Sequence record: ON528737
Source: Shigella phage ESh27
Length of the DNA stretch: 64,000 bases
Direction: 5' to 3' (one strand)
The notes under the pieces: model-generated
Database searches by the model: none
Told to the model about the DNA's origin: nothing
Seen by the model: only the letters and a program-made list of their open reading frames with translations
Position numbers and translations under genes: made by a program
Shown: positions 6,170-63,198 of the stretch, in pieces
How the letters are laid out: the number at the start of each line of letters is the position of its first letter
How positions within the stretch are numbered: the stretch's first letter is position 1

Positions 6170-6205
6170 GTTTACTTCTCCGGTAGTTGTGTTATTATAG
6201 ACCTA
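6170..6205 (+). promoter_or_regulatory. early promoter
   Basis: -35 GTTTAC 6170-6175, 17 bp, -10 TATTAT 6193-6198; followed by AGACCTATCAA. Confidence 0.5.
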
Positions 6206-6224
6206 TCAACTACTGGAGAACAAA

Positions 6225-6542
6225 ATGAAAACCATCGATTGTAAAGCAGAATTTAAGATTTTTTATCACGGTTCAAGTAGTTCAGCTAACATCGAAAACA
6301 TGCTTTGTCCTCCTGAAGAAACAGGAGTTCTGTCTGAAACTGGACGTAAGAAAAACTTGGATCGTGTATTCTTTACTGAAGATATCGGTTTAGCAAAGAT
6401 TTATGCAGGACGAGCAGCACGCTCTTATGGAGGTGAACCACGTCTCTATCGAGTAATTTCTCCGGTAGACGTAGTTCAAATGAATGATACTAAAGGTGCT
6501 ACAGTTTATCACGCTGAATGGGCATTTTGCGAGGAAATATGA
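6225..6542 (+). CDS. hypothetical protein
   Basis: 105 aa ORF with SD GGAG upstream. Confidence 0.5.
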   Translation: MKTIDCKAEFKIFYHGSSSSANIENMLCPPEETGVLSETGRKKNLDRVFFTEDIGLAKIYAGRAARSYGGEPRLYRVISPVDVVQMNDTKGATVYHAEWAFCEEI

Positions 6543-7377: not shown

Positions 7378-7415
7378 TTTACGCCAAAGTTAAAACAAGA
7401 TACTATAAACATAAC
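7378..7415 (+). promoter_or_regulatory. early promoter
   Basis: -35 GTTTAC 7378-7383, 18 bp, -10 TACTAT 7402-7407. Confidence 0.45.
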
Positions 7416-7434
7416 AAATCAAGAGGAAATTAAC

Positions 7435-7683
7435 ATGGAATTATTCGTAGCTAGTTCAGTAGCAGTTTTAATCGCAGGTATTGGTTCAATCATCATTTAC
7501 ATGTTGCCTTGGGTAATCGCACTTATTCGTGGCACAAAAAGCACAACAGCAATCTTCTTTGTATCTTTGCTCTTTAACTGGACGATGGTTGGTTGGATTG
7601 GAACTTTAATTTGGTCTATCGTTGCCGAAAAGAAATCTGCTCAGCAGCCTCAACAAGTAATTATTATTCGCGAAAAAGAATAA
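7435..7683 (+). CDS. small membrane protein
   Basis: 82 aa with two hydrophobic helices. Confidence 0.5.
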   Translation: MELFVASSVAVLIAGIGSIIIYMLPWVIALIRGTKSTTAIFFVSLLFNWTMVGWIGTLIWSIVAEKKSAQQPQQVIIIREKE

Positions 7684-16693: not shown

Positions 16694-17371
16694 ATGAGCA
16701 CTGATGTTATTATAGATTTTGAAACATTCGGCAATACATCAAAAGCTGCTGTTATTGACCTTGCGGTTATTGCATATAATTCCGACCCTGAAGTTGTTGA
16801 AACATTTGAAGAACTTGTTCAACGAGGTAAGCGAATTAAATTTAATTTAGCTTCTCAGAAAGGGAAGCGAGTTTTCGCTAAATCCACTATGAAATGGTGG
16901 AAAGAACAATCAGCAGAAGCACGTAAAAACCTGGCTCCGTCTGAAGACGATGTCACTACGCTTGAAGGCATTAAAATCTTTTTAGATTATTGTCGAGCTA
17001 ATAAAGTTGACCAATGGAAATCACAGATGTGGTGCCGTGGTATGAGCTTTGACTTCCCGATATTGGTCGATTTGATTCGTGATCTCTATCGTGATGAAGG
17101 TGTTCTTGAACCAGATATTGATACTGATAAATTAGAACCGGTTAAATTCTGGGCTCAACGCGATATTCGTACGGCAATCGAAGCTTACTCGTTGACACGA
17201 GGATTAAGTATGTGTCCATTACCGATGGGTACGCTAAAAGGATTCGTTGCCCATGATAGTATTCATGATTGTGCTAAAGATATTTTGATGTTAAAATATG
17301 CTCAGCGTTATGCGCTTGGTCTTGAAGATGTCCCTGAGAATCCTGACCCGTTAAGTGTAAAACAGCGATAA
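16694..17371 (+). CDS. dexA: DexA 3'-5' exonuclease A
   Basis: 225 aa; DEDD-type IIDFETFG motif; size and synteny with T4 dexA. Confidence 0.8.
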   Translation: MSTDVIIDFETFGNTSKAAVIDLAVIAYNSDPEVVETFEELVQRGKRIKFNLASQKGKRVFAKSTMKWWKEQSAEARKNLAPSEDDVTTLEGIKIFLDYCRANKVDQWKSQMWCRGMSFDFPILVDLIRDLYRDEGVLEPDIDTDKLEPVKFWAQRDIRTAIEAYSLTRGLSMCPLPMGTLKGFVAHDSIHDCAKDILMLKYAQRYALGLEDVPENPDPLSVKQR

Positions 17372-17376
17372 AATCA

Positions 17377-17415
17377 GTTTACAACCAAGGATGGTTGGAG
17401 TATAATCTTTCTATC
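17377..17415 (+). promoter_or_regulatory. early promoter
   Basis: -35 GTTTAC 17377-17382, 18 bp, -10 TATAAT 17401-17406; spacer carries CCAAGGATGGTTGG palindrome. Confidence 0.5.
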
Positions 17416-17437
17416 TTAACCAAACAGGAAAAACATT

Positions 17438-17932
17438 ATGAATATCAATACTACGGCTACTTACATCCTGAAAGACGAAAAACAAATTAACTGGTATGGT
17501 GCTTCAGTGCGAGCTTACGAAAAGTTTTGTGAAATTTTAGGCACCACTCAAGGTAATAGTTTCACTATTGTTAACTTCATCAAACAAGCTGAAGGCCCTT
17601 GGTTATTCTTAGAAATTAAAAATTCATATGGTACAATTTCCACTACCGCCCTTCCAAGCACAGACTTTGAACTGTTGATTGAAGAAGTAGAACCCGTTAA
17701 AGACATCTGTATTGATATGGATATCGCTTGTATGTACGGTACTCTGATTAAGCCTATTGAGCCTACTGATTTGCTGTGTAAATATGTTTCAATTCGACGC
17801 CCGTTCGCAGGTCCAGTAAATGGATGGGTAACTGACCAGTGGATTGAAGACGGTGTTGAACTTCTGAACGTTGTTCATGCAGGTGATTTTAGTGTAGTTC
17901 CACGTAGTGCTGTGGTTAATATCCTTAATTAA
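17438..17932 (+). CDS. hypothetical protein, tandem paralog 1
   Basis: 164 aa; C-terminal NGWVTDQWIEDGVELLNVVHAGDFSVV block shared with the next two ORFs. Confidence 0.5.
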   Translation: MNINTTATYILKDEKQINWYGASVRAYEKFCEILGTTQGNSFTIVNFIKQAEGPWLFLEIKNSYGTISTTALPSTDFELLIEEVEPVKDICIDMDIACMYGTLIKPIEPTDLLCKYVSIRRPFAGPVNGWVTDQWIEDGVELLNVVHAGDFSVVPRSAVVNILN

Positions 17933-17934
17933 TG

Positions 17935-17972
17935 TTGTACATCCAAGGATGGATGGAGTATAATGAATTCAA
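17935..17972 (+). promoter_or_regulatory. early promoter
   Basis: -35 TTGTAC 17935-17940, 18 bp, -10 TATAAT 17959-17964; near-duplicate of the 17377 promoter. Confidence 0.5.
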
Positions 17973-17994
17973 TTTAAACAAAGAGAGAGAAATT

Positions 17995-18480
17995 ATGAAT
18001 CTTGGTATTATTGGTGAAATCGTTCGCGTATCTAACAAATCTCGTTCTAAAGCCGCAGGAAAATTGGTCGAAGTTGTAAGTATTCAACTTAAAGAAGGCG
18101 TTAAAGATGAAGATTCTGAGGTAAAAGTTCGTATTATTCCTAGTTTTGGGACACAGGAAACCAAATTTGCTTATGTTCGTGCAAAGTTCTTGGAAACGCC
18201 TGTGAGTAGTGCTTTTGCTTCAAGAGAAAAAGTTGAATCCACAGAGCATAATGCACAGTTCAAATGGGCCTTGTGTAAAGGTGTTGAATTCCAGACCGAT
18301 AAAGAATTTGACTTCATCGATGAATATGGTTATCCAAGCAAAACTGATACTATGTGTGGCTTCATTAGTGACCAATGGGTTGAAGATGGTGAAAAGTTAT
18401 ACAATATCGTATTCTTAGGTGACTTCCGAGTTGTTAAAGAATCTGAAATCACTCGCTATGTGTCTCCTCGTAAAGCTTAA
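17995..18480 (+). CDS. hypothetical protein, tandem paralog 2
   Basis: 161 aa from ATG 17995; shares SRSKAAGKLVEV and GFISDQWVEDGEKLYNIVF blocks. Confidence 0.5.
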   Translation: MNLGIIGEIVRVSNKSRSKAAGKLVEVVSIQLKEGVKDEDSEVKVRIIPSFGTQETKFAYVRAKFLETPVSSAFASREKVESTEHNAQFKWALCKGVEFQTDKEFDFIDEYGYPSKTDTMCGFISDQWVEDGEKLYNIVFLGDFRVVKESEITRYVSPRKA

Positions 18481-18489
18481 GGAATTATT

Positions 18490-18909
18490 ATGAATATTGC
18501 AAATCTCTCTATTGGTGATTATGTACACGTATCAGATGCTTCTCGCTCTAAAGTTGCCGGGAAGTTGGTTGAAGTTCTTTCTGTAAGTTGTGGACTCTTT
18601 AGTCCACATCAAGTTAAAGTTCGTGATGCTGATGGCAACATTGGCTACGTCTCAAGCCAATTCATTGAACCAGAAGAAAAAGCGTTCAAATGGGGACTAT
18701 GCAGATCAGTTTCTGTTGAAAAAGACCACGAATTCACTATTGCTGCGGCAACCGATGGAACGCCATGGAAAACTAAGCAAATCGCCGGATTTATTAGCGA
18801 CCGTTGGGTAGAAGATGGTGTTAAGCTTTATAACATCGTTTTCGCTGGTCAGTTCATGGTAGTTCCTGAATTCCAAATTAAAAAATATAGCCCGGCTGCT
18901 TTCGCATAA
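18490..18909 (+). CDS. hypothetical protein, tandem paralog 3
   Basis: 139 aa; shares SRSKVAGKLVEV and GFISDRWVEDGVKLYNIVF blocks. Confidence 0.5.
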   Translation: MNIANLSIGDYVHVSDASRSKVAGKLVEVLSVSCGLFSPHQVKVRDADGNIGYVSSQFIEPEEKAFKWGLCRSVSVEKDHEFTIAAATDGTPWKTKQIAGFISDRWVEDGVKLYNIVFAGQFMVVPEFQIKKYSPAAFA

Positions 18910-18913
18910 AGTT

Positions 18914-18965
18914 GTTTACTTCTCCTCTGGTTTTGATATTATAACCATATCAACCAGAGGAGAAT
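18914..18965 (+). promoter_or_regulatory. early promoter inside 12-bp perfect inverted repeat (PeSL-like)
   Basis: -35 GTTTAC 18914-18919, -10 TATTAT 18937-18942; arms TCTCCTCTGGTT 18921-18932 and AACCAGAGGAGA 18952-18963. Confidence 0.5.
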
Positions 18966-18968
18966 AAT

Positions 18969-19217
18969 ATGTTAGTTTACCGCGTAGAACGTAGTTTTTG
19001 TACTCAACGTGAATCATTACCAGGAATTGCTATTGAAGACGGTAAAGCCGTCAGAATTTGGGAAACCTCTTGGAATAAAGAACCTCGTTCGCCATACGGT
19101 TGGTCGGGCACCGACAACTCTGAAGAAACATGGGAGTTCCTTGATAAACATGGAATACTCTCAGGTAATTTCTACCATCACGGCGACAACTATAATGTCC
19201 CTAATCGTCGAAGATAA
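18969..19217 (+). CDS. hypothetical protein
   Basis: 82 aa; SD GAGGAG. Confidence 0.4.
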   Translation: MLVYRVERSFCTQRESLPGIAIEDGKAVRIWETSWNKEPRSPYGWSGTDNSEETWEFLDKHGILSGNFYHHGDNYNVPNRRR

Positions 19218-19482
19218 ACTCCTTGAACAAAATATCTTAAGATACTATAGAATTGAGCACACATTTGAATTGAGTGAAGATTGGGCTCAAGGGTTCTATT
19301 TTGGATTTGAAAGTGTTGACGCGGTTTATGCATGGTTTGATGACCAGGTAGATGTTGAACTCTTGAAAGCTAAAGGATACTACATCGCGGTCTATGAAGC
19401 ACCTGATTTCATCCTCGGAAGTTGTCAATTAGTGTTCAGACGTTCATTGGCAGAACAAGTTGATTTTATTTTGCTAAAATGA
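19195..19482 (+). CDS. hypothetical protein
   Basis: 95 aa from internal ATG of the 19009 ORF; start uncertain. Confidence 0.3.
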   Translation: MSLIVEDKLLEQNILRYYRIEHTFELSEDWAQGFYFGFESVDAVYAWFDDQVDVELLKAKGYYIAVYEAPDFILGSCQLVFRRSLAEQVDFILLK

Positions 19483-19539
19483 TGTACAACAACTATGGTC
19501 TATGATACTATAGACCTATCAAAACAAGAGGAGAATATT

Positions 19540-19767
19540 ATGAAACGTCAAATCATTAAAAACGTAACTACTGATTCAAACATCGATGAGTTTGAAGATG
19601 TTCTGTTTAATCCTGATTTAGTTGTTGTACAGAAAAACTGGACTGAATTTTTATGCTACACTGAAGTGGTTTACGTTTACGAAAAACTCGGTGATGAAAT
19701 GCCTATCTATGGTATCTTCCGTGAAATCACTGAAAATGGTACAACTTATTGGAAGGAAACTTACTAA
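19540..19767 (+). CDS. hypothetical protein
   Basis: 75 aa from ATG 19540 with SD AAGAGGAGAA. Confidence 0.45.
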
Positions 19768-20177
19768 TGGCTAATAAATTCCGCGTTAACTCATGGTACC
19801 AATTTAAAGATAAACGTGCCCAAGAAGAGTTTATTAAAAACCACACTGATAATGGGATTTATGCACGACGTCTTGGCATGGAACCATTTAAAGTATTAGA
19901 TGTTGACCATCTTGGACGACCTACTAAAATTGTGACATCTACTGGCATGGTTGGATACGCAACTGGTGGTGATATTCTTGATGAAAACTTTATCTGGCTC
20001 TCTACTAGTGAAGCAGAGTTTTTTGATGAAGTTGGAAATCCATATCAAGCGTCTGAAGAGCAAGACTCTGGAGAACTTGATGAATTGTCCGAATTTCCGG
20101 TGATGACGATTACTATCGAAAATAACGACCAGGCATGGTCTTTGTATCAAATGTTGAAAACACATTTTAAGGAATAA
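19767..20177 (+). CDS. hypothetical acidic protein
   Basis: 136 aa from ATG 19767. Confidence 0.5.
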
Positions 20178-20179
20178 TA

Positions 20180-20359
20180 ATGCCGTTATACGACTATAAA
20201 TGTCAATCTGAAGATTGTGGTCATGAATATGAAAAAATTAAAAGGATTTCTGAACGAGAAAACGATGTTTGCCCTGAATGTCATCGTCTGTCTACTCGTC
20301 GGGTTTCTGCTCCTAAACATGTGAACGGTGGTTTTTACGACTTACTTAAGAAGGGATAA
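20180..20359 (+). CDS. zinc-ribbon small protein
   Basis: 59 aa, below the ORF-track cutoff; two CxxC pairs (CQSEDC...CPEC). Confidence 0.5.
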   Translation: MPLYDYKCQSEDCGHEYEKIKRISERENDVCPECHRLSTRRVSAPKHVNGGFYDLLKKG

Positions 20360-20361
20360 TT

Positions 20362-20787
20362 ATGGCTTTTAAAGGTTTTGAAATTGGCAAGAAATACCGT
20401 ATTATCAAAGGTCAAGAAGATAATTTCTTGAGAATTCTTAATACGACTGGTAAACGTCTTAATACTAATCTGCATACTACTTTATTGTCCAAAGATTTTA
20501 TTGTGGAAGAGATGATTGGTTACGGCGTTTCGGTTATTGCTGTAGAAGCCGTAGGCGATTATGGCCGAACTATTCATAGTATGCAAGGTGATATTCTGCT
20601 TTATGGTGCAGAATTTAAATTCTTTGAAGAAGTTTCGGAACCAGATACAGCTGTCGATTTCAAAAAAGGCTCTATAGAATTTGTTGATGGTTCGGTGATC
20701 GTATCAGGCGATGTGGTCATTACAGTTAAAAGTGAACAAGGGCGTTTGGCTGCAATTGATGCACTTCAGAAAATTAAATTTAAATAA
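20362..20787 (+). CDS. hypothetical protein
   Basis: 141 aa; followed by GC hairpin + T-run terminator. Confidence 0.5.
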   Translation: MAFKGFEIGKKYRIIKGQEDNFLRILNTTGKRLNTNLHTTLLSKDFIVEEMIGYGVSVIAVEAVGDYGRTIHSMQGDILLYGAEFKFFEEVSEPDTAVDFKKGSIEFVDGSVIVSGDVVITVKSEQGRLAAIDALQKIKFK

Positions 20788-20805
20788 GGGCTTCGGCCCT
20801 TTTTG
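20788..20805 (+). terminator. intrinsic terminator
   Basis: GGGC-TTCG-GCCC hairpin + TTTTTG. Confidence 0.6.
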
Positions 20806-20850
20806 CTTTAGATTTCGGATGATAGAATACCTTCATAACGAGGAGACAAC

Positions 20851-22668
20851 ATGATTAAAAATGAAATTAAGGTACTGTCAGATGTAGAACATATTAAGAA
20901 ACGTAGTGGTATGTATATTGGTTCTTCTGCTAAAGAAGCACATGAACGTTTTTTGTTTGGTAAATATCAACAAGTTGAATATGTTCCTGGTCTGGTTAAA
21001 TTAATCGATGAGATTATTGACAACTCGGTTGATGAAGCTATTCGTACATCATTTAAGTTTGCAAATAAAATTGATGTGCAAATTAAAAATAATCAAGTTT
21101 CGGTGGAAGATAACGGACGTGGTATTCCTCAAGGTTTAGTTACCGACCAAACGGGTGAACAAATTCCTGGGCCTGTTGCAGCCTGGACTATTCCAAAAGC
21201 CGGTGGTAACTTTGGTGATGACTCTGAACGTAAGACTGGTGGTATGAACGGCGTCGGGAGTAGTTTAACTAATATCTTCTCTACGTTGTTTACAGGCATA
21301 ACGTCAGATGGCGAAAATGAAATCACTGTTAACTGTTCAAACGGGATGGAAAACAAATCATGGTCTTCTAAGAAATCTAAAGGTAAAGGCACTAAAGTAA
21401 TCTTCACTCCTGATTTCACTTCATTTGAAGAGCATAATTTATCTCAAATTTATTTAGATATTACTTTAGACCGACTTCAAACATTGGCAGTCGTTTATCC
21501 TGATATCAAGTTCACATTTAACGGTAAAAAGGTTGATGGTAATTTTAAACGATTTGCTAAACAATTTGGCGAAGATAATATCATTCAAGAAAATGATAAA
21601 GTCTCTATAGCATTCACAACATCACCAGATGGCTTCCGTCATTTAACTTATGTGAATAACATCCATACTAAAAATGGTGGACATCATGTTGAATGTGTAA
21701 TGGACGATATCTGCGAACATCTTTTGCCAGGTATTAAAAAGAAATATAAGGGTATTGAAGTCACTAAAGCTCGTGTTAAAGAATGCCTCACAATGTTGAT
21801 GTTTATTAGAGACATGAGTAACATGCGTTTTGATTCTCAGACTAAAGAACGTTTAACGTCAACATATGGTGATATTCGTAATCATATCCAATTAGATGCT
21901 AAGAAAATTGCTCAGGCACTTCTTAAAAACGAAGCCTTGATTATGCCTATTGTTGAAGCAGCATTAGCTCGTAAATTGGCAGCAGAAAAGGCTGCAGAAA
22001 CTAAAGCAGCTAAAAAGGCCACTAAAGCTAAGGTTCATAAGCATATTAAAGCTAACCAATGCGGTAAAGATGCAGATACGACATTGTTTTTAACAGAAGG
22101 TGATTCGGCAATTGGATATCTCATTGATGTTCGTGACCGTGAACTACATGGCGGATTCCCATTACGTGGTAAGGTGATGAATAGCTGGGGTATGTCATAT
22201 GCTGATATGATGAAGAACAAAGAGCTCTTTGATATCTGTGCTATCACAGGTCTTATTCTTGGTGAAAAAGCAGAGAATACGAACTATCGTAATATTGCAA
22301 TTATGACCGATGCCGATCATGACGGTCTTGGAAGTATCTATCCGGCTTTGCTTGCTTTCTTTAGTAATTGGCCTGAATTGTTTGAACAAGGACGTATTCG
22401 CTTTGTTAAAACGCCTGTAATTATTGCACAAATTGGCAAAACACAAAAATGGTTTTATACTGTAGCTGAGTATGAAGAAGCTAAAGATACACTGCCTAAG
22501 CATAGTATTCGATACATCAAGGGATTAGGCTCCCTTGAAAAGTCAGAATATCGTGAAATGATTCAGAACCCTGTGTACGACGTAGTTAAACTTCCTGAAA
22601 ATTGGAAAGAACTCTTTGAAATGTTGATGGGTGATGATTCAGAACTTCGTAAAGAATGGATGTCCTAA
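20851..22668 (+). CDS. 39: DNA topoisomerase II large subunit (gp39 with gp60 fused)
   Basis: 605 aa continuous; GHKL ATPase motif EDNGRGIP, TOPRIM LTEGDSA; covers both 39 and 60 of T4 in one frame. Confidence 0.9.
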   Translation: MIKNEIKVLSDVEHIKKRSGMYIGSSAKEAHERFLFGKYQQVEYVPGLVKLIDEIIDNSVDEAIRTSFKFANKIDVQIKNNQVSVEDNGRGIPQGLVTDQTGEQIPGPVAAWTIPKAGGNFGDDSERKTGGMNGVGSSLTNIFSTLFTGITSDGENEITVNCSNGMENKSWSSKKSKGKGTKVIFTPDFTSFEEHNLSQIYLDITLDRLQTLAVVYPDIKFTFNGKKVDGNFKRFAKQFGEDNIIQENDKVSIAFTTSPDGFRHLTYVNNIHTKNGGHHVECVMDDICEHLLPGIKKKYKGIEVTKARVKECLTMLMFIRDMSNMRFDSQTKERLTSTYGDIRNHIQLDAKKIAQALLKNEALIMPIVEAALARKLAAEKAAETKAAKKATKAKVHKHIKANQCGKDADTTLFLTEGDSAIGYLIDVRDRELHGGFPLRGKVMNSWGMSYADMMKNKELFDICAITGLILGEKAENTNYRNIAIMTDADHDGLGSIYPALLAFFSNWPELFEQGRIRFVKTPVIIAQIGKTQKWFYTVAEYEEAKDTLPKHSIRYIKGLGSLEKSEYREMIQNPVYDVVKLPENWKELFEMLMGDDSELRKEWMS

Positions 22669-28881: not shown

Positions 28882-28920
28882 TTGTACAAACTCTTGAGAG
28901 CAGAGTATAATGCTCTCATG
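28882..28920 (+). promoter_or_regulatory. early promoter within inverted repeat
   Basis: -35 TTGTAC 28882-28887, 18 bp, -10 TATAAT 28906-28911 flanked by GAGAGCA/TGCTCTC. Confidence 0.5.
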
Positions 28921-28955
28921 GATTACAAAAACATTAATCAATTGAGGAAATTAGC

Positions 28956-29402
28956 ATGACCAAATATTTAACTCGTAAAGACCTTCTGGCCGTTGGCGGT
29001 GAAGTTGTTGCAGTAGTTCGTAATGGTGAATACGGTTCCGAAGTTTCTAAAGAGTTTCGTTCTCGTGAAGGTTTTTACTTCTTTGTTAAAGGTTCATCTG
29101 ACTGGCGACAAGTAGCAGCACGATTCTTTGTAGGACGCCAACGTTCTAAACAAGGGTTAGATGCAATTCTTTCTCACATTCGTCAAGGCCGTTCGCAACT
29201 GGCTCGTACCATGGGCACTAATAATATTGAATATGATGTAATCTTTGTTTCAGCCAAGAACATGAAACCTCTGACTACCGGTTATGGTAAAGGTCAATTG
29301 GCTCTGGCATTCACTCGCAATCATTCATCAGAATATCAAACACTCACTGAAATGAACCGTCTTCTGGCTGATAATTTCAAATTCATTCTGCAGAGTTACT
29401 AA
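28956..29402 (+). CDS. hypothetical protein (Ndd-sized, ndd slot)
   Basis: 148 aa between rIIB and 52; followed by hairpin GGCCTA-TTAAGT-TAGGCC + T-run. Confidence 0.5.
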
Positions 29403-56906: not shown

Positions 56907-56945
56907 TTTACAAACTCTCGGGAGCAGAGTATAATGCTCCTATGG
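56906..56945 (+). promoter_or_regulatory. early promoter within inverted repeat
   Basis: -35 GTTTAC 56906-56911, 18 bp, -10 TATAAT 56930-56935 flanked by GGAGCA/TGCTCC; near-copy of the 28882 element. Confidence 0.5.
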
Positions 56946-56963
56946 ATAATTGAGGAAATCTAA

Positions 56964-57262
56964 ATGAAAACATTACTAGAGAATTATATCAAACGGTCAG
57001 ATGAGTATATTGATATCTGCCGTGGAATGTCACTTGTCAATTATGATAAAGATGCAGCAAAGGCCATAGATGAAGCAGGTAAAGCTCTTCGTAAAGCTGC
57101 TAAAGAAAAAGGGTTGGATTTGCAACAACTCAAAAGTCATATGATTAAATTTATTTCTTCAAACGTTAGAAGTACGTCAATTAATAAAAACGTTGCTGAA
57201 ATTAATAAAGACCGGCGCGAACATAACATTCGTATTCTTGAAGCTTTCTTAGGAATAAAATA

Positions 57263-63128: not shown

Positions 63129-63165
63129 GTTTACTTTGGTACAGGTTATGTTATTATAGACCTGT
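63129..63165 (+). promoter_or_regulatory. early promoter within inverted repeat
   Basis: -35 GTTTAC 63129-63134, 17 bp, -10 TATTAT 63152-63157 inside GGTACAGG...CCTGTACC. Confidence 0.45.
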
Positions 63166-63198
63166 ACCAACAAACAACTTAAACATCCGGAGAATAAA

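Follow-up and report, generated by a model that had tools for sequence, protein, structure and literature searches.

The window analysed here, a stretch of 64,000 nt, derives from an RB69-like (Mosigvirus) T-even phage, and the region under study is 95-97.5% identical to phiE142, SF, mobillu, RB69 and approximately 140 other records. The + strand corresponds to the direction of early genes, and the gene order is Dda helicase, DexA exonuclease, three tandem MotB-like paralogues (17438-18909), a hairpin, motB.2, cef, goF, 39.2 and gene 39. The features that concern us at this locus are as follows.

17378-17406, + strand: strong early-promoter-like site upstream, TTTACA-17-TATAAT (11 of 12 consensus positions), from which read-through RNA probably crosses the three MotB-like genes into the hairpin
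18490-18909, + strand: MotB-like paralogue of 139 aa (phrog_1671, E 6e-51)
18914-18920, + strand: -35 region of a T4-type early promoter, GTTTAC, with the hexamer TTTACT at 18915-18920 (promoter scan; T4 early consensus)
18920-18932, + strand: left (5') arm, TTCTCCTCTGGTT, complementary to the Shine-Dalgarno (SD) sequence (repeat search and fold; covarying columns 7-17 of alignment A3)
18934-18942, + strand: extended -10, TGaTATTAT, with TG at 18934-18935 and TATTAT at 18937-18942 (promoter scan and fold)
18947-18952, + strand: 3' half of the upper stem, ATATCA, with the predicted transcription start at about 18949 (fold)
18952-18964, + strand: right (3') arm, AACCAGAGGAGAA, containing the SD GAGGAG at 18957-18962 (fold; covarying columns 43-53 of A3)
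18959-18969, + strand: RegB/S1-type cleavage motif, GGAGAATAATA, matching 10 of the 11 positions of the strong-site consensus GG*AGRAYARAA (PMC3014915)
18969-19482, + strand: disrupted homologue of motB.2 (dexA.-1) (alignment with phiE142 and mobillu; annotated in RB69 as motB.2)

In related phages motB.2 is a single 525-nt ORF encoding 174 aa. The original prediction, which was made from the sequence alone, took the ORF at 18969 to be the next gene; this gene is not intact, since an 11-nt deletion after 19209 in this genome leaves the remainder in another frame and reduces the ORF to only 82 aa (18969-19217). Both halves match phrog_1106 at consecutive profile positions.

The inverted repeat that drew attention to the locus was described as perfect over 12 bp, and both arms, TCTCCTCTGGTT (18921-18932) and AACCAGAGGAGA (18952-18963), were found at these positions. 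The perfect repeat is longer than was noted, extending to 13 nt per arm (18920-18932 and 18952-18964, one extra base on each side) with a gap of 19 nt. Folded as RNA, it forms a hairpin of 18 bp in total, comprising 12 lower pairs, a 2-nt bulge, six upper pairs (18934-18939 with 18947-18952) and a 7-nt loop. The expectation of a stable fold is borne out by a free energy of -23.9 kcal/mol, compared with -8.0 +/- 2.5 kcal/mol in dinucleotide shuffles (z -6.4), and none of 200 shuffles matched this stability. The window contains one perfect inverted repeat of at least 13 nt with a loop of 3-40 nt, compared with a mean of 0.043 per dinucleotide shuffle; such a repeat was seen in 4.3% of 300 shuffled windows, which taken alone is a modest rarity. 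A chance origin of the hairpin is nevertheless ruled out, because the extension into the upper stem, the intergenic position, and the conservation and covariation presented below all join the rarity of the repeat. A search of positions 17000-21000 with the Rfam covariance models (E <= 1) returned no relevant match.

The arms were also said to enclose a -10 element, and the promoter scan does place TATTAT between them, at 18937-18942, separated from TTTACT by a 16-nt spacer. The extended -10 doubles as the 5' half of the upper stem (18934-18939), and the left arm occupies the -35/-10 spacer. The overall layout, GTTTAC-N-TGnTAYTAT-N-TATCAA-N-SD-N-ATG, is that of a T-even early-promoter cassette, GTTTAC being the -35 consensus of T4 early promoters (PMC1524935). 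Counting seven bases on from the -10 hexamer puts the predicted transcription start at about 18949, with the left arm wholly upstream of it. The RB69 orthologue already appears among the early promoters predicted by Nolan et al. (2006; PMC1524935, additional file 3), as Pe:7443, on the minus strand at 7394-7443 with the remark '1 bp del'. In RB69 the GTTTAC lies at 7429-7424, the 3' end of the promoter model (7394) is the seventh base after TATTAT and thus equivalent to position ~18949 of the window, and the label '1 bp del' agrees with the 16-nt spacer found here. Records of the T4 group annotate an early promoter at the orthologous junction between dexA and motB.2, citing GTTTAC(N14)gtggTAttaT; the GenBank and RefSeq records of T4 itself contain no promoter features. 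The predicted start for T4 motB.2, at about 8182, is a candidate for identity with the T4 early promoter named P8.1 (PMC2988021). With a T4-type early consensus, an extended -10 and an independent prediction in RB69, the promoter is credible on sequence grounds. Control by a late promoter, as in T4 gene e, was rejected, since the late motif TATAAATA is absent from both strands between 18701 and 19100.

The right arm supplies the GAGGAG of the ribosome-binding site, as had been predicted, with six bases between this SD (18957-18962) and the ATG at 18969. Since the predicted start is downstream of the entire 5' arm, RNA from the hairpin's own promoter would carry only the 3' arm. The folding comparison of read-through and promoter-initiated leaders, suggested at the outset as a check, has now been carried out and finds the SD buried only in RNA that contains the left arm. 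In read-through RNA, both the minimum free energy and the ensemble folds bury the SD within the hairpin; opening the ribosome docking site (-18 to +10) would cost 20.9 kcal/mol, and opening the SD alone 19.5 kcal/mol. In the leader that begins at the predicted +1, the docking site requires only 3.3 kcal/mol and structure is no greater than in shuffled sequences (z +0.35), leaving the SD free. The corresponding difference in opening energy in other masked cassettes is 15.6 kcal/mol both for a second copy in the window at 6170 and for T4 motB.2, 15.1 for JS98, 16.5 and 10.5 for two PM2-like phages and 5.8 for Phi_KR8, whereas it is only 3.2-4.3 kcal/mol in three unmasked cassettes of the window.

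Read-through RNA, the existence and abundance of which are predicted for this phage, is plausible because no terminator-like site was predicted on the + strand between the promoter at 17378 and position 18920. The nearest upstream MotA-box promoter on the + strand lies at a distance of about 6.7 kb. Coupling of motB.2 translation to that of the upstream ORF was considered and judged unlikely. The stop codon of the MotB-like gene (18907-18909) ends 10 nt ahead of the left arm (17 nt before the stem in T4), so that a ribosome stopping there would cover no more than one or two base pairs at the foot of the 18-bp helix.

Orthologous motB.2 loci were gathered by means of the MotB.2 protein, without use of the hairpin, and T4 was added. 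In all of these loci the SD is buried and the -10 lies within or at the 5' arm, and the loci fall into four lineages with unrelated stems. The RB69-like stem is TTCTCCTCTGGTT / AACCAGAGGAGAA, the T4-like stem is CCUCGGU.AGUUGUGGU / ACCAUAGCUACUGAGG (17 bp, -23.7 kcal/mol, z -5.0) and the JS98-like stem is TTCTCCTCATG / CATGAGGAGAA. In PM2-like phages the stem is shifted, begins within the -10 and buries the AUG as well, and in one of these loci, L015, it includes two G.U pairs.

To look beyond motB.2, the viral collection was scanned with a promoter core that is blind to the stem (GTTTAC-N16-19-TAYTATA-N4-TATCAA), yielding 116 distinct cassettes. In 17 of these (14.7%) the spacer and leader of the same cassette form a duplex of -16 kcal/mol or stronger, compared with 0.64% of cross-paired controls; at a cut-off of -12 kcal/mol the values are 19% for own pairs and 2.9% for cross pairs. 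Differences between stems beside the anti-SD core are compensated, as in TCTCCTGTAG/CTACAGGAGA, TCTCCAGTAG/CTACTGGAGA, TCTCCATTAG/CTAATGGAGA and CTCCTTTAGTT/AACTAAAGGAG. An alignment of 12 distinct masked cassettes contains a lower stem of 11 pairs in which 95.5% of cells are paired, with double-sided changes in five of the 11 pairs (18 cells). Its covariation score of 0.376, compared with 0.10 in shuffles, was not reached in any of 500 shuffles, and registers slid along the alignment gave at most 0.065. These 12 members were selected for strong pairing and are related to one another, and hence the cross-pair control on the 116 cassettes is the less biased measure. Among 45 distinct stems, interior mismatches at a relaxed setting comprise 17 G.T and four A.C, and under a strict mismatch penalty one of each, so the outcome depends on the penalty; the G.T excess is suggestive of selection for pairing in the sense RNA and not for a palindrome in the DNA. 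The genes that follow masked cassettes belong to at least eight families: motB.2, the RegB endoribonuclease, DenV and phrogs 2274, 2110, 1692, 1764 and 7089. In the first 50 kb of T4, which contain about ten cassettes, the only strongly masked one is that of motB.2, a gene that goes unmentioned in the T4 omics paper. In sum, the analysis demonstrates the repeat, the fold, the match to the promoter consensus, the conservation, the covariation and the contrast in accessibility.

The window holds about 18 early-promoter cassettes on the + strand, many of which carry a short stem-loop, either within the -35/-10 spacer or surrounding the -10. Only two cassettes, 18914-18971 and 6170-6227, have stems that reach the SD. 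In about 16 of the 18 the stem stops short of it, so masking defines a subclass and is not the rule. The second masked copy and the cassette that follows motB.2 are listed here.

6170-6227, + strand: second SD-masking early-promoter hairpin, TTCTCCGGTAGTTG / CAACTACTGGAGAA, 14 bp with one G.U (-20.8 kcal/mol, z -4.7), preceding a 105-aa phrog_2110 gene
19483-19542, + strand: cassette before cef, whose right half, TATCAAAACAAGAGGAGAATATTATG, is nearly identical to that of the motB.2 cassette (sequence comparison)

The cef cassette forms only a short stem around its -10 (GGTCTAT/ATAGACC) and its SD is unmasked. The motB.2 cassette, taken as a 67-nt element, recurs at 2014 places in 881 phage records, with four to eight places per Mosigvirus genome. 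Phages phi25-307 and TH58 are without motB.2, and in phi25-307 the junction fuses the left part of the motB.2 cassette with the right part of the cef cassette from the window, which implies, from sequence comparison, that the cef cassette would have been the recombination partner. The location of motB.2 with its cassette also differs between lineages, being after dexA in T4 and JS98 and after the motB paralogues in RB69-like phages.

The SD is embedded in the RegB/S1-type motif GGAGAATAATA. The 64 kb contain only six such sites, including those of both masked cassettes; in the predicted folds, the motif at motB.2 is unpaired only in the own-promoter transcript. The regB gene was not found in the window, and RB69 is reported to possess one (PMC3014915). 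RegB is blocked by secondary structure (PMC1702504; PMC3014915), and 16 RegB-resistant T4 RNAs have their GGAG within stable structures (PMC1702504). The SD motif of T4 motB.2 is one of only two intergenic GGAU sites at which RegB cleaves efficiently in vivo (Durand et al., 2006, PMC1702504), and this cleavage shows that motB.2 RNA with an exposed SD exists during T4 infection.

We propose that the 5' half and loop of the 18-bp RNA hairpin double as a strong early promoter of the sigma-70 type, so that, as the original prediction held, translation of motB.2 would depend on the origin of the transcript. Transcripts started upstream would hold both arms, fold and hide the ribosome-binding site, leaving motB.2 untranslated, whereas those started at the hairpin's own promoter (~18949) would hold the 3' arm alone and be translated from a single-stranded SD. 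Because the exposed SD is also a RegB/S1-type site, the productive transcripts would probably be inactivated rapidly, while the masked read-through RNA would be both silent and resistant to RegB. The likely net result is that MotB.2 synthesis would be set by its own promoter alone, as a short immediate-early pulse, irrespective of upstream transcription. Taken as a whole, this model, in which a cassette of the promoter-early stem-loop (PeSL) type carries an SD-masking hairpin, allows translation only from its own promoter and confines expression to a RegB-limited early pulse, seems to us reasonably probable. For this phage we infer the start site, the translational block, the coupling to RegB and the temporal consequence. 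The temporal benefit is less obvious than in the late-promoter cases, since the hairpin's own promoter and the nearest upstream promoters are all early. Given the frameshift in motB.2, the control may be vestigial in this genome; the hairpin promoter would still feed cef and genes farther downstream.

A stable hairpin located just past a stop codon resembles a terminator, the orthologous hairpin is automatically annotated as rho-independent in two GenBank records, and a PeSL stem-loop of phage RB49 cut lacZ expression in a transcriptional-fusion vector approximately as much as rrnB T1 (PMC2839356). The stem-loop could on these grounds act mainly as a terminator or attenuator of upstream RNA that prevents additive transcription from tandem early promoters, its overlap with the SD being incidental. 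However, no U-tract follows the stem (the flank is AAUAAUAUG on the + strand and GUAAACAAC on the - strand), the terminator scan makes no call at the hairpin, all masked cassettes are A-rich in this flank and the RB49 stems that were assayed are G-run/C-run hairpins of a different type. Nor does termination account for the coincidence of the 3' arm with the SD in four lineages (and with the AUG too in PM2-like phages), or for a 5' arm that invariably precedes the start site. An intrinsic terminator was rejected on the missing U-tract and the missing call, and on account of the PeSL reporter data we retain this reading as an unlikely rival. Somewhat less probable still is an element that acts on decay of the mRNA, whether as a 3' stabiliser of the MotB-like message, as a shield of the GGAG against RegB or as a target of the RNase III type. 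The stem of about 18 bp, the 10 of 11 match of the SD to the strong RegB consensus and the inhibition of RegB by structure are all compatible with such a role. This alternative largely collapses into the main model, because pairing of the SD shuts out the ribosome and RegB alike; a stabiliser, for its part, needs neither a 5' arm that is excluded from the proximal transcript nor a 3' arm that is the SD. Furthermore, evidence for RNase III processing of T4 early mRNAs was not found in T4 reviews (PMC3014915), and regB lies outside the window, though RB69 is reported to have one.

The repeat might alternatively act as DNA, either as a recombination substrate (as in the PeSL mini-circle model), as a cruciform or as an operator for a dimeric repressor of early promoters, and the mechanism by which early promoters are shut off is still unknown (PMC2988021). 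The multi-copy 67-nt element, the loss of motB.2 from phi25-307 and TH58 with the chimeric junction in the former, and the differing position of motB.2 and its cassette between T4/JS98 and RB69-like phages are in keeping with recombination. Yet recombination requires similarity between cassettes and not self-complementarity within one, and the arms vary between cassettes and change compensatorily, so that there is no common operator sequence. The preponderance of G.T over A.C (17:4) and the stems bearing G.U pairs also fit pairing in RNA. We therefore regard a role as DNA as very improbable; cassette shuffling is probably a real evolutionary by-product, yet it leaves the stem unexplained. The reading that we prefer remains a translational one, in which the hairpin masks the SD in read-through RNA.

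Whether this extends beyond motB.2 is a more tentative matter. It is possible, although we would not yet call it probable, that SD-masking early-promoter hairpins form a general self-insulating class in T-even phages, amounting to about 15% of early cassettes, in which a portable module confers translation from its own promoter only and a RegB-limited pulse. If so, the class would cover motB.2, regB, denV and several genes of unknown function, a gene together with its cassette would be expressed alike wherever recombination places it, and the PeSL shuffling model would gain a functional rationale at the level of translation. If the model is correct, the T4 rule that transcript origin decides translation, established for a few late-promoter cases, would apply to a recurrent group of early genes as well, and part of the PeSL stem-loops would serve to insulate translation and not to terminate transcription. 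The RegB resistance of many GGAG sites in longer T4 transcripts may also find part of its explanation here. These considerations bear on the restriction of some host-takeover proteins of T-even phages to the opening minutes of infection and on how shuffled gene cassettes maintain an expression level that is independent of context. Since the T4 motB.2 leader shares the design, the model is directly testable in T4.

Amongst known systems, the closest in anatomy are the PeSL cassettes of T4-type phages (Arbiol et al., 2010, PMC2839356; Comeau et al., 2014, PMC4122927), to which the motB.2 cassette is assigned on five of the six features that can be judged from sequence. Its promoter, TTTACT-N16-TATTAT with TG at -15/-14, fits the T4/PST consensus TTTACW-N17-TAYWAT (PMC2839356; PMC4122927), apart from a spacer of 16 nt and not 17. 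PeSL stem-loops lie between the -35 and -10 or overlap the -10, and here the 18-bp hairpin encloses the -10. The cassette has an SD and start codon at its 3' end (GAGGAG at 18957-18962, ATG at 18969), and it belongs to a multi-copy family in variable early regions (about 18 in the window, and four to eight places of the 67-nt element per Mosigvirus genome). An association with breakpoints of insertion, deletion or replacement is apparent in the chimeric phi25-307 junction and in the gene order of T4 and JS98 versus RB69-like phages. The feature that differs is AT-richness upstream of the -35, since the 25 nt before GTTTAC, which are coding and form the 3' end of the upstream ORF, are 48% A+T compared with 62% for the genome. 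The PeSL stems have been read as terminators or attenuators and as recombination sites (PMC2839356), whereas the motB.2 stem lacks a U-tract and supplies the SD itself as its 3' arm; 'translation', 'ribosome' and RB69 receive no mention in the two PeSL papers (PMC2839356; PMC4122927). Masking of the SD by an early-promoter hairpin is not described in the PeSL papers, two T4 reviews in Virology Journal, Nolan et al. (2006) or Durand et al. (2006), the literature covered here. In RB69, the type phage of the genus, Pe:7443 is the same promoter at the same locus, and it is listed as a promoter only, the words stem-loop and hairpin being absent from that paper (PMC1524935).

The likeness to RegB/S1 sites (PMC1702504) consists of GGAG followed by an A-rich, C-poor 7-mer, GGAGAATAATA compared with GGAGRAYARAA; such sites are defined as unstructured, and the predicted site at motB.2 is unstructured in the promoter-proximal transcript only. 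In its mode of action, the hairpin would by analogy work like the leaders of T4 e (lysozyme), soc, 49 and I-TevI, except that its promoter is early. In these leaders the SD and/or AUG is sequestered in transcripts initiated upstream (Uzan and Miller, 2010, PMC3014915), a promoter in or next to the 5' arm gives rise to transcripts that lack this arm and are translated, and the effect of masking in gene e is about 100-fold (PMC3014915). At motB.2 the SD is likewise paired in upstream-initiated RNA, according to the folds and the cost of 19.5 kcal/mol for opening the SD, and transcripts from the predicted +1 at about 18949 would lack 18920-18939. The inner promoters of e, soc, 49 and I-TevI are late (TATAAATA) and their purpose is to delay expression to late times, whereas the promoter in the motB.2 hairpin is early, and by this analogy its logic would be the inverse, namely to restrict or insulate early expression.

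SD masking recurs in the window: a second early-promoter hairpin, of 14 bp including one G.U pair (dG -20.8, z -4.7), precedes a 105-aa gene (phrog_2110, 6225-6542), and its SD, GGAGAACAAAA, fits the RegB strong-site consensus perfectly. Further early-promoter cassettes in the window carry stem-loops that end short of the SD. The cassettes are as follows:

6170-6227, second SD-masking early-promoter hairpin, arms TTCTCCGGTAGTTG / CAACTACTGGAGAA
63130-63199, cassette with an 11-bp perfect repeat flanking the -10 (63136-63146 / 63160-63170)
28883-28956, cassette with a stem around the -10, GAGAGCA..TGCTCTC
56907-56966, cassette with a stem around the -10, GGGAGCA..TGCTCCT
17378, 17936, 54319 and 55501, cassettes whose -35/-10 spacer holds a short hairpin

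The -10 stems of the 28883 and 56907 cassettes resemble each other, and all four spacer hairpins have an AAGG(A) loop. TATCAA, the conserved start-region motif of these early promoters (here within 18934-18953, and in the cassettes generally), and the extended -10 (TTGATA) are complementary, so that a short upper stem is inherent in many cassettes, whether or not the SD is masked.

Masked cassettes also occur in other phages. In JS98-like phages (L039, L041, L061, L091 and L110), SD-masking early-promoter hairpins with arms TCTCCTGTAG / CTACAGGAGA precede both regB and denV; in T4, the SD of regB itself is a known target of RegB autoregulation. Klebsiella phage Phi_KR8 (L005, 1500-1568) has a related two-tier masked cassette in a different context, between the dNMP kinase region and a tRNA cluster, followed by a gene for a 59-aa predicted membrane protein (phrog_1692). 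The motB.2 gene is absent from Shigella phage phi25-307 (L003, 1692-1795) and from TH58, the latter seen as a truncated match only. At the phi25-307 junction the motB.2 cassette contributes its left half and the cef cassette its right half, fused in a PeSL-type deletion or insertion.

In the window, the motB.2 homologue (18969-19482) carries an 11-nt deletion after 19209, the missing bases being CTACTGTAAAT in phiE142 and CTACAGTAAAT in mobillu, which leaves an 82-aa ORF with the rest of the gene out of frame. Among the matches listed, the full-length relatives span 1312-1313 bases against 1301 in the query, all of them 11-12 longer. Either motB.2 is truly a pseudogene here or the assembly is wrong at this point.

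Two further features of the window are:

17438-18909, three tandem MotB-like paralogues of 164, 182 and 139 aa
20786-20828, bidirectional terminator-like hairpin, AAGGGCTTCGGCCCTT, with a UUCG loop

Directly after the terminator-like hairpin and upstream of gene 39 lies a site resembling a MotA-box middle promoter (TGCTTTAG..TAGAAT), whose position matches that of T4 P39. The three MotB-like paralogues share a conserved C-terminal motif, DQWVEDG..LYNIVF.G.F.VV. T4 has a single motB, and the order of the MotB-like genes and motB.2 is inverted relative to T4 and JS98.
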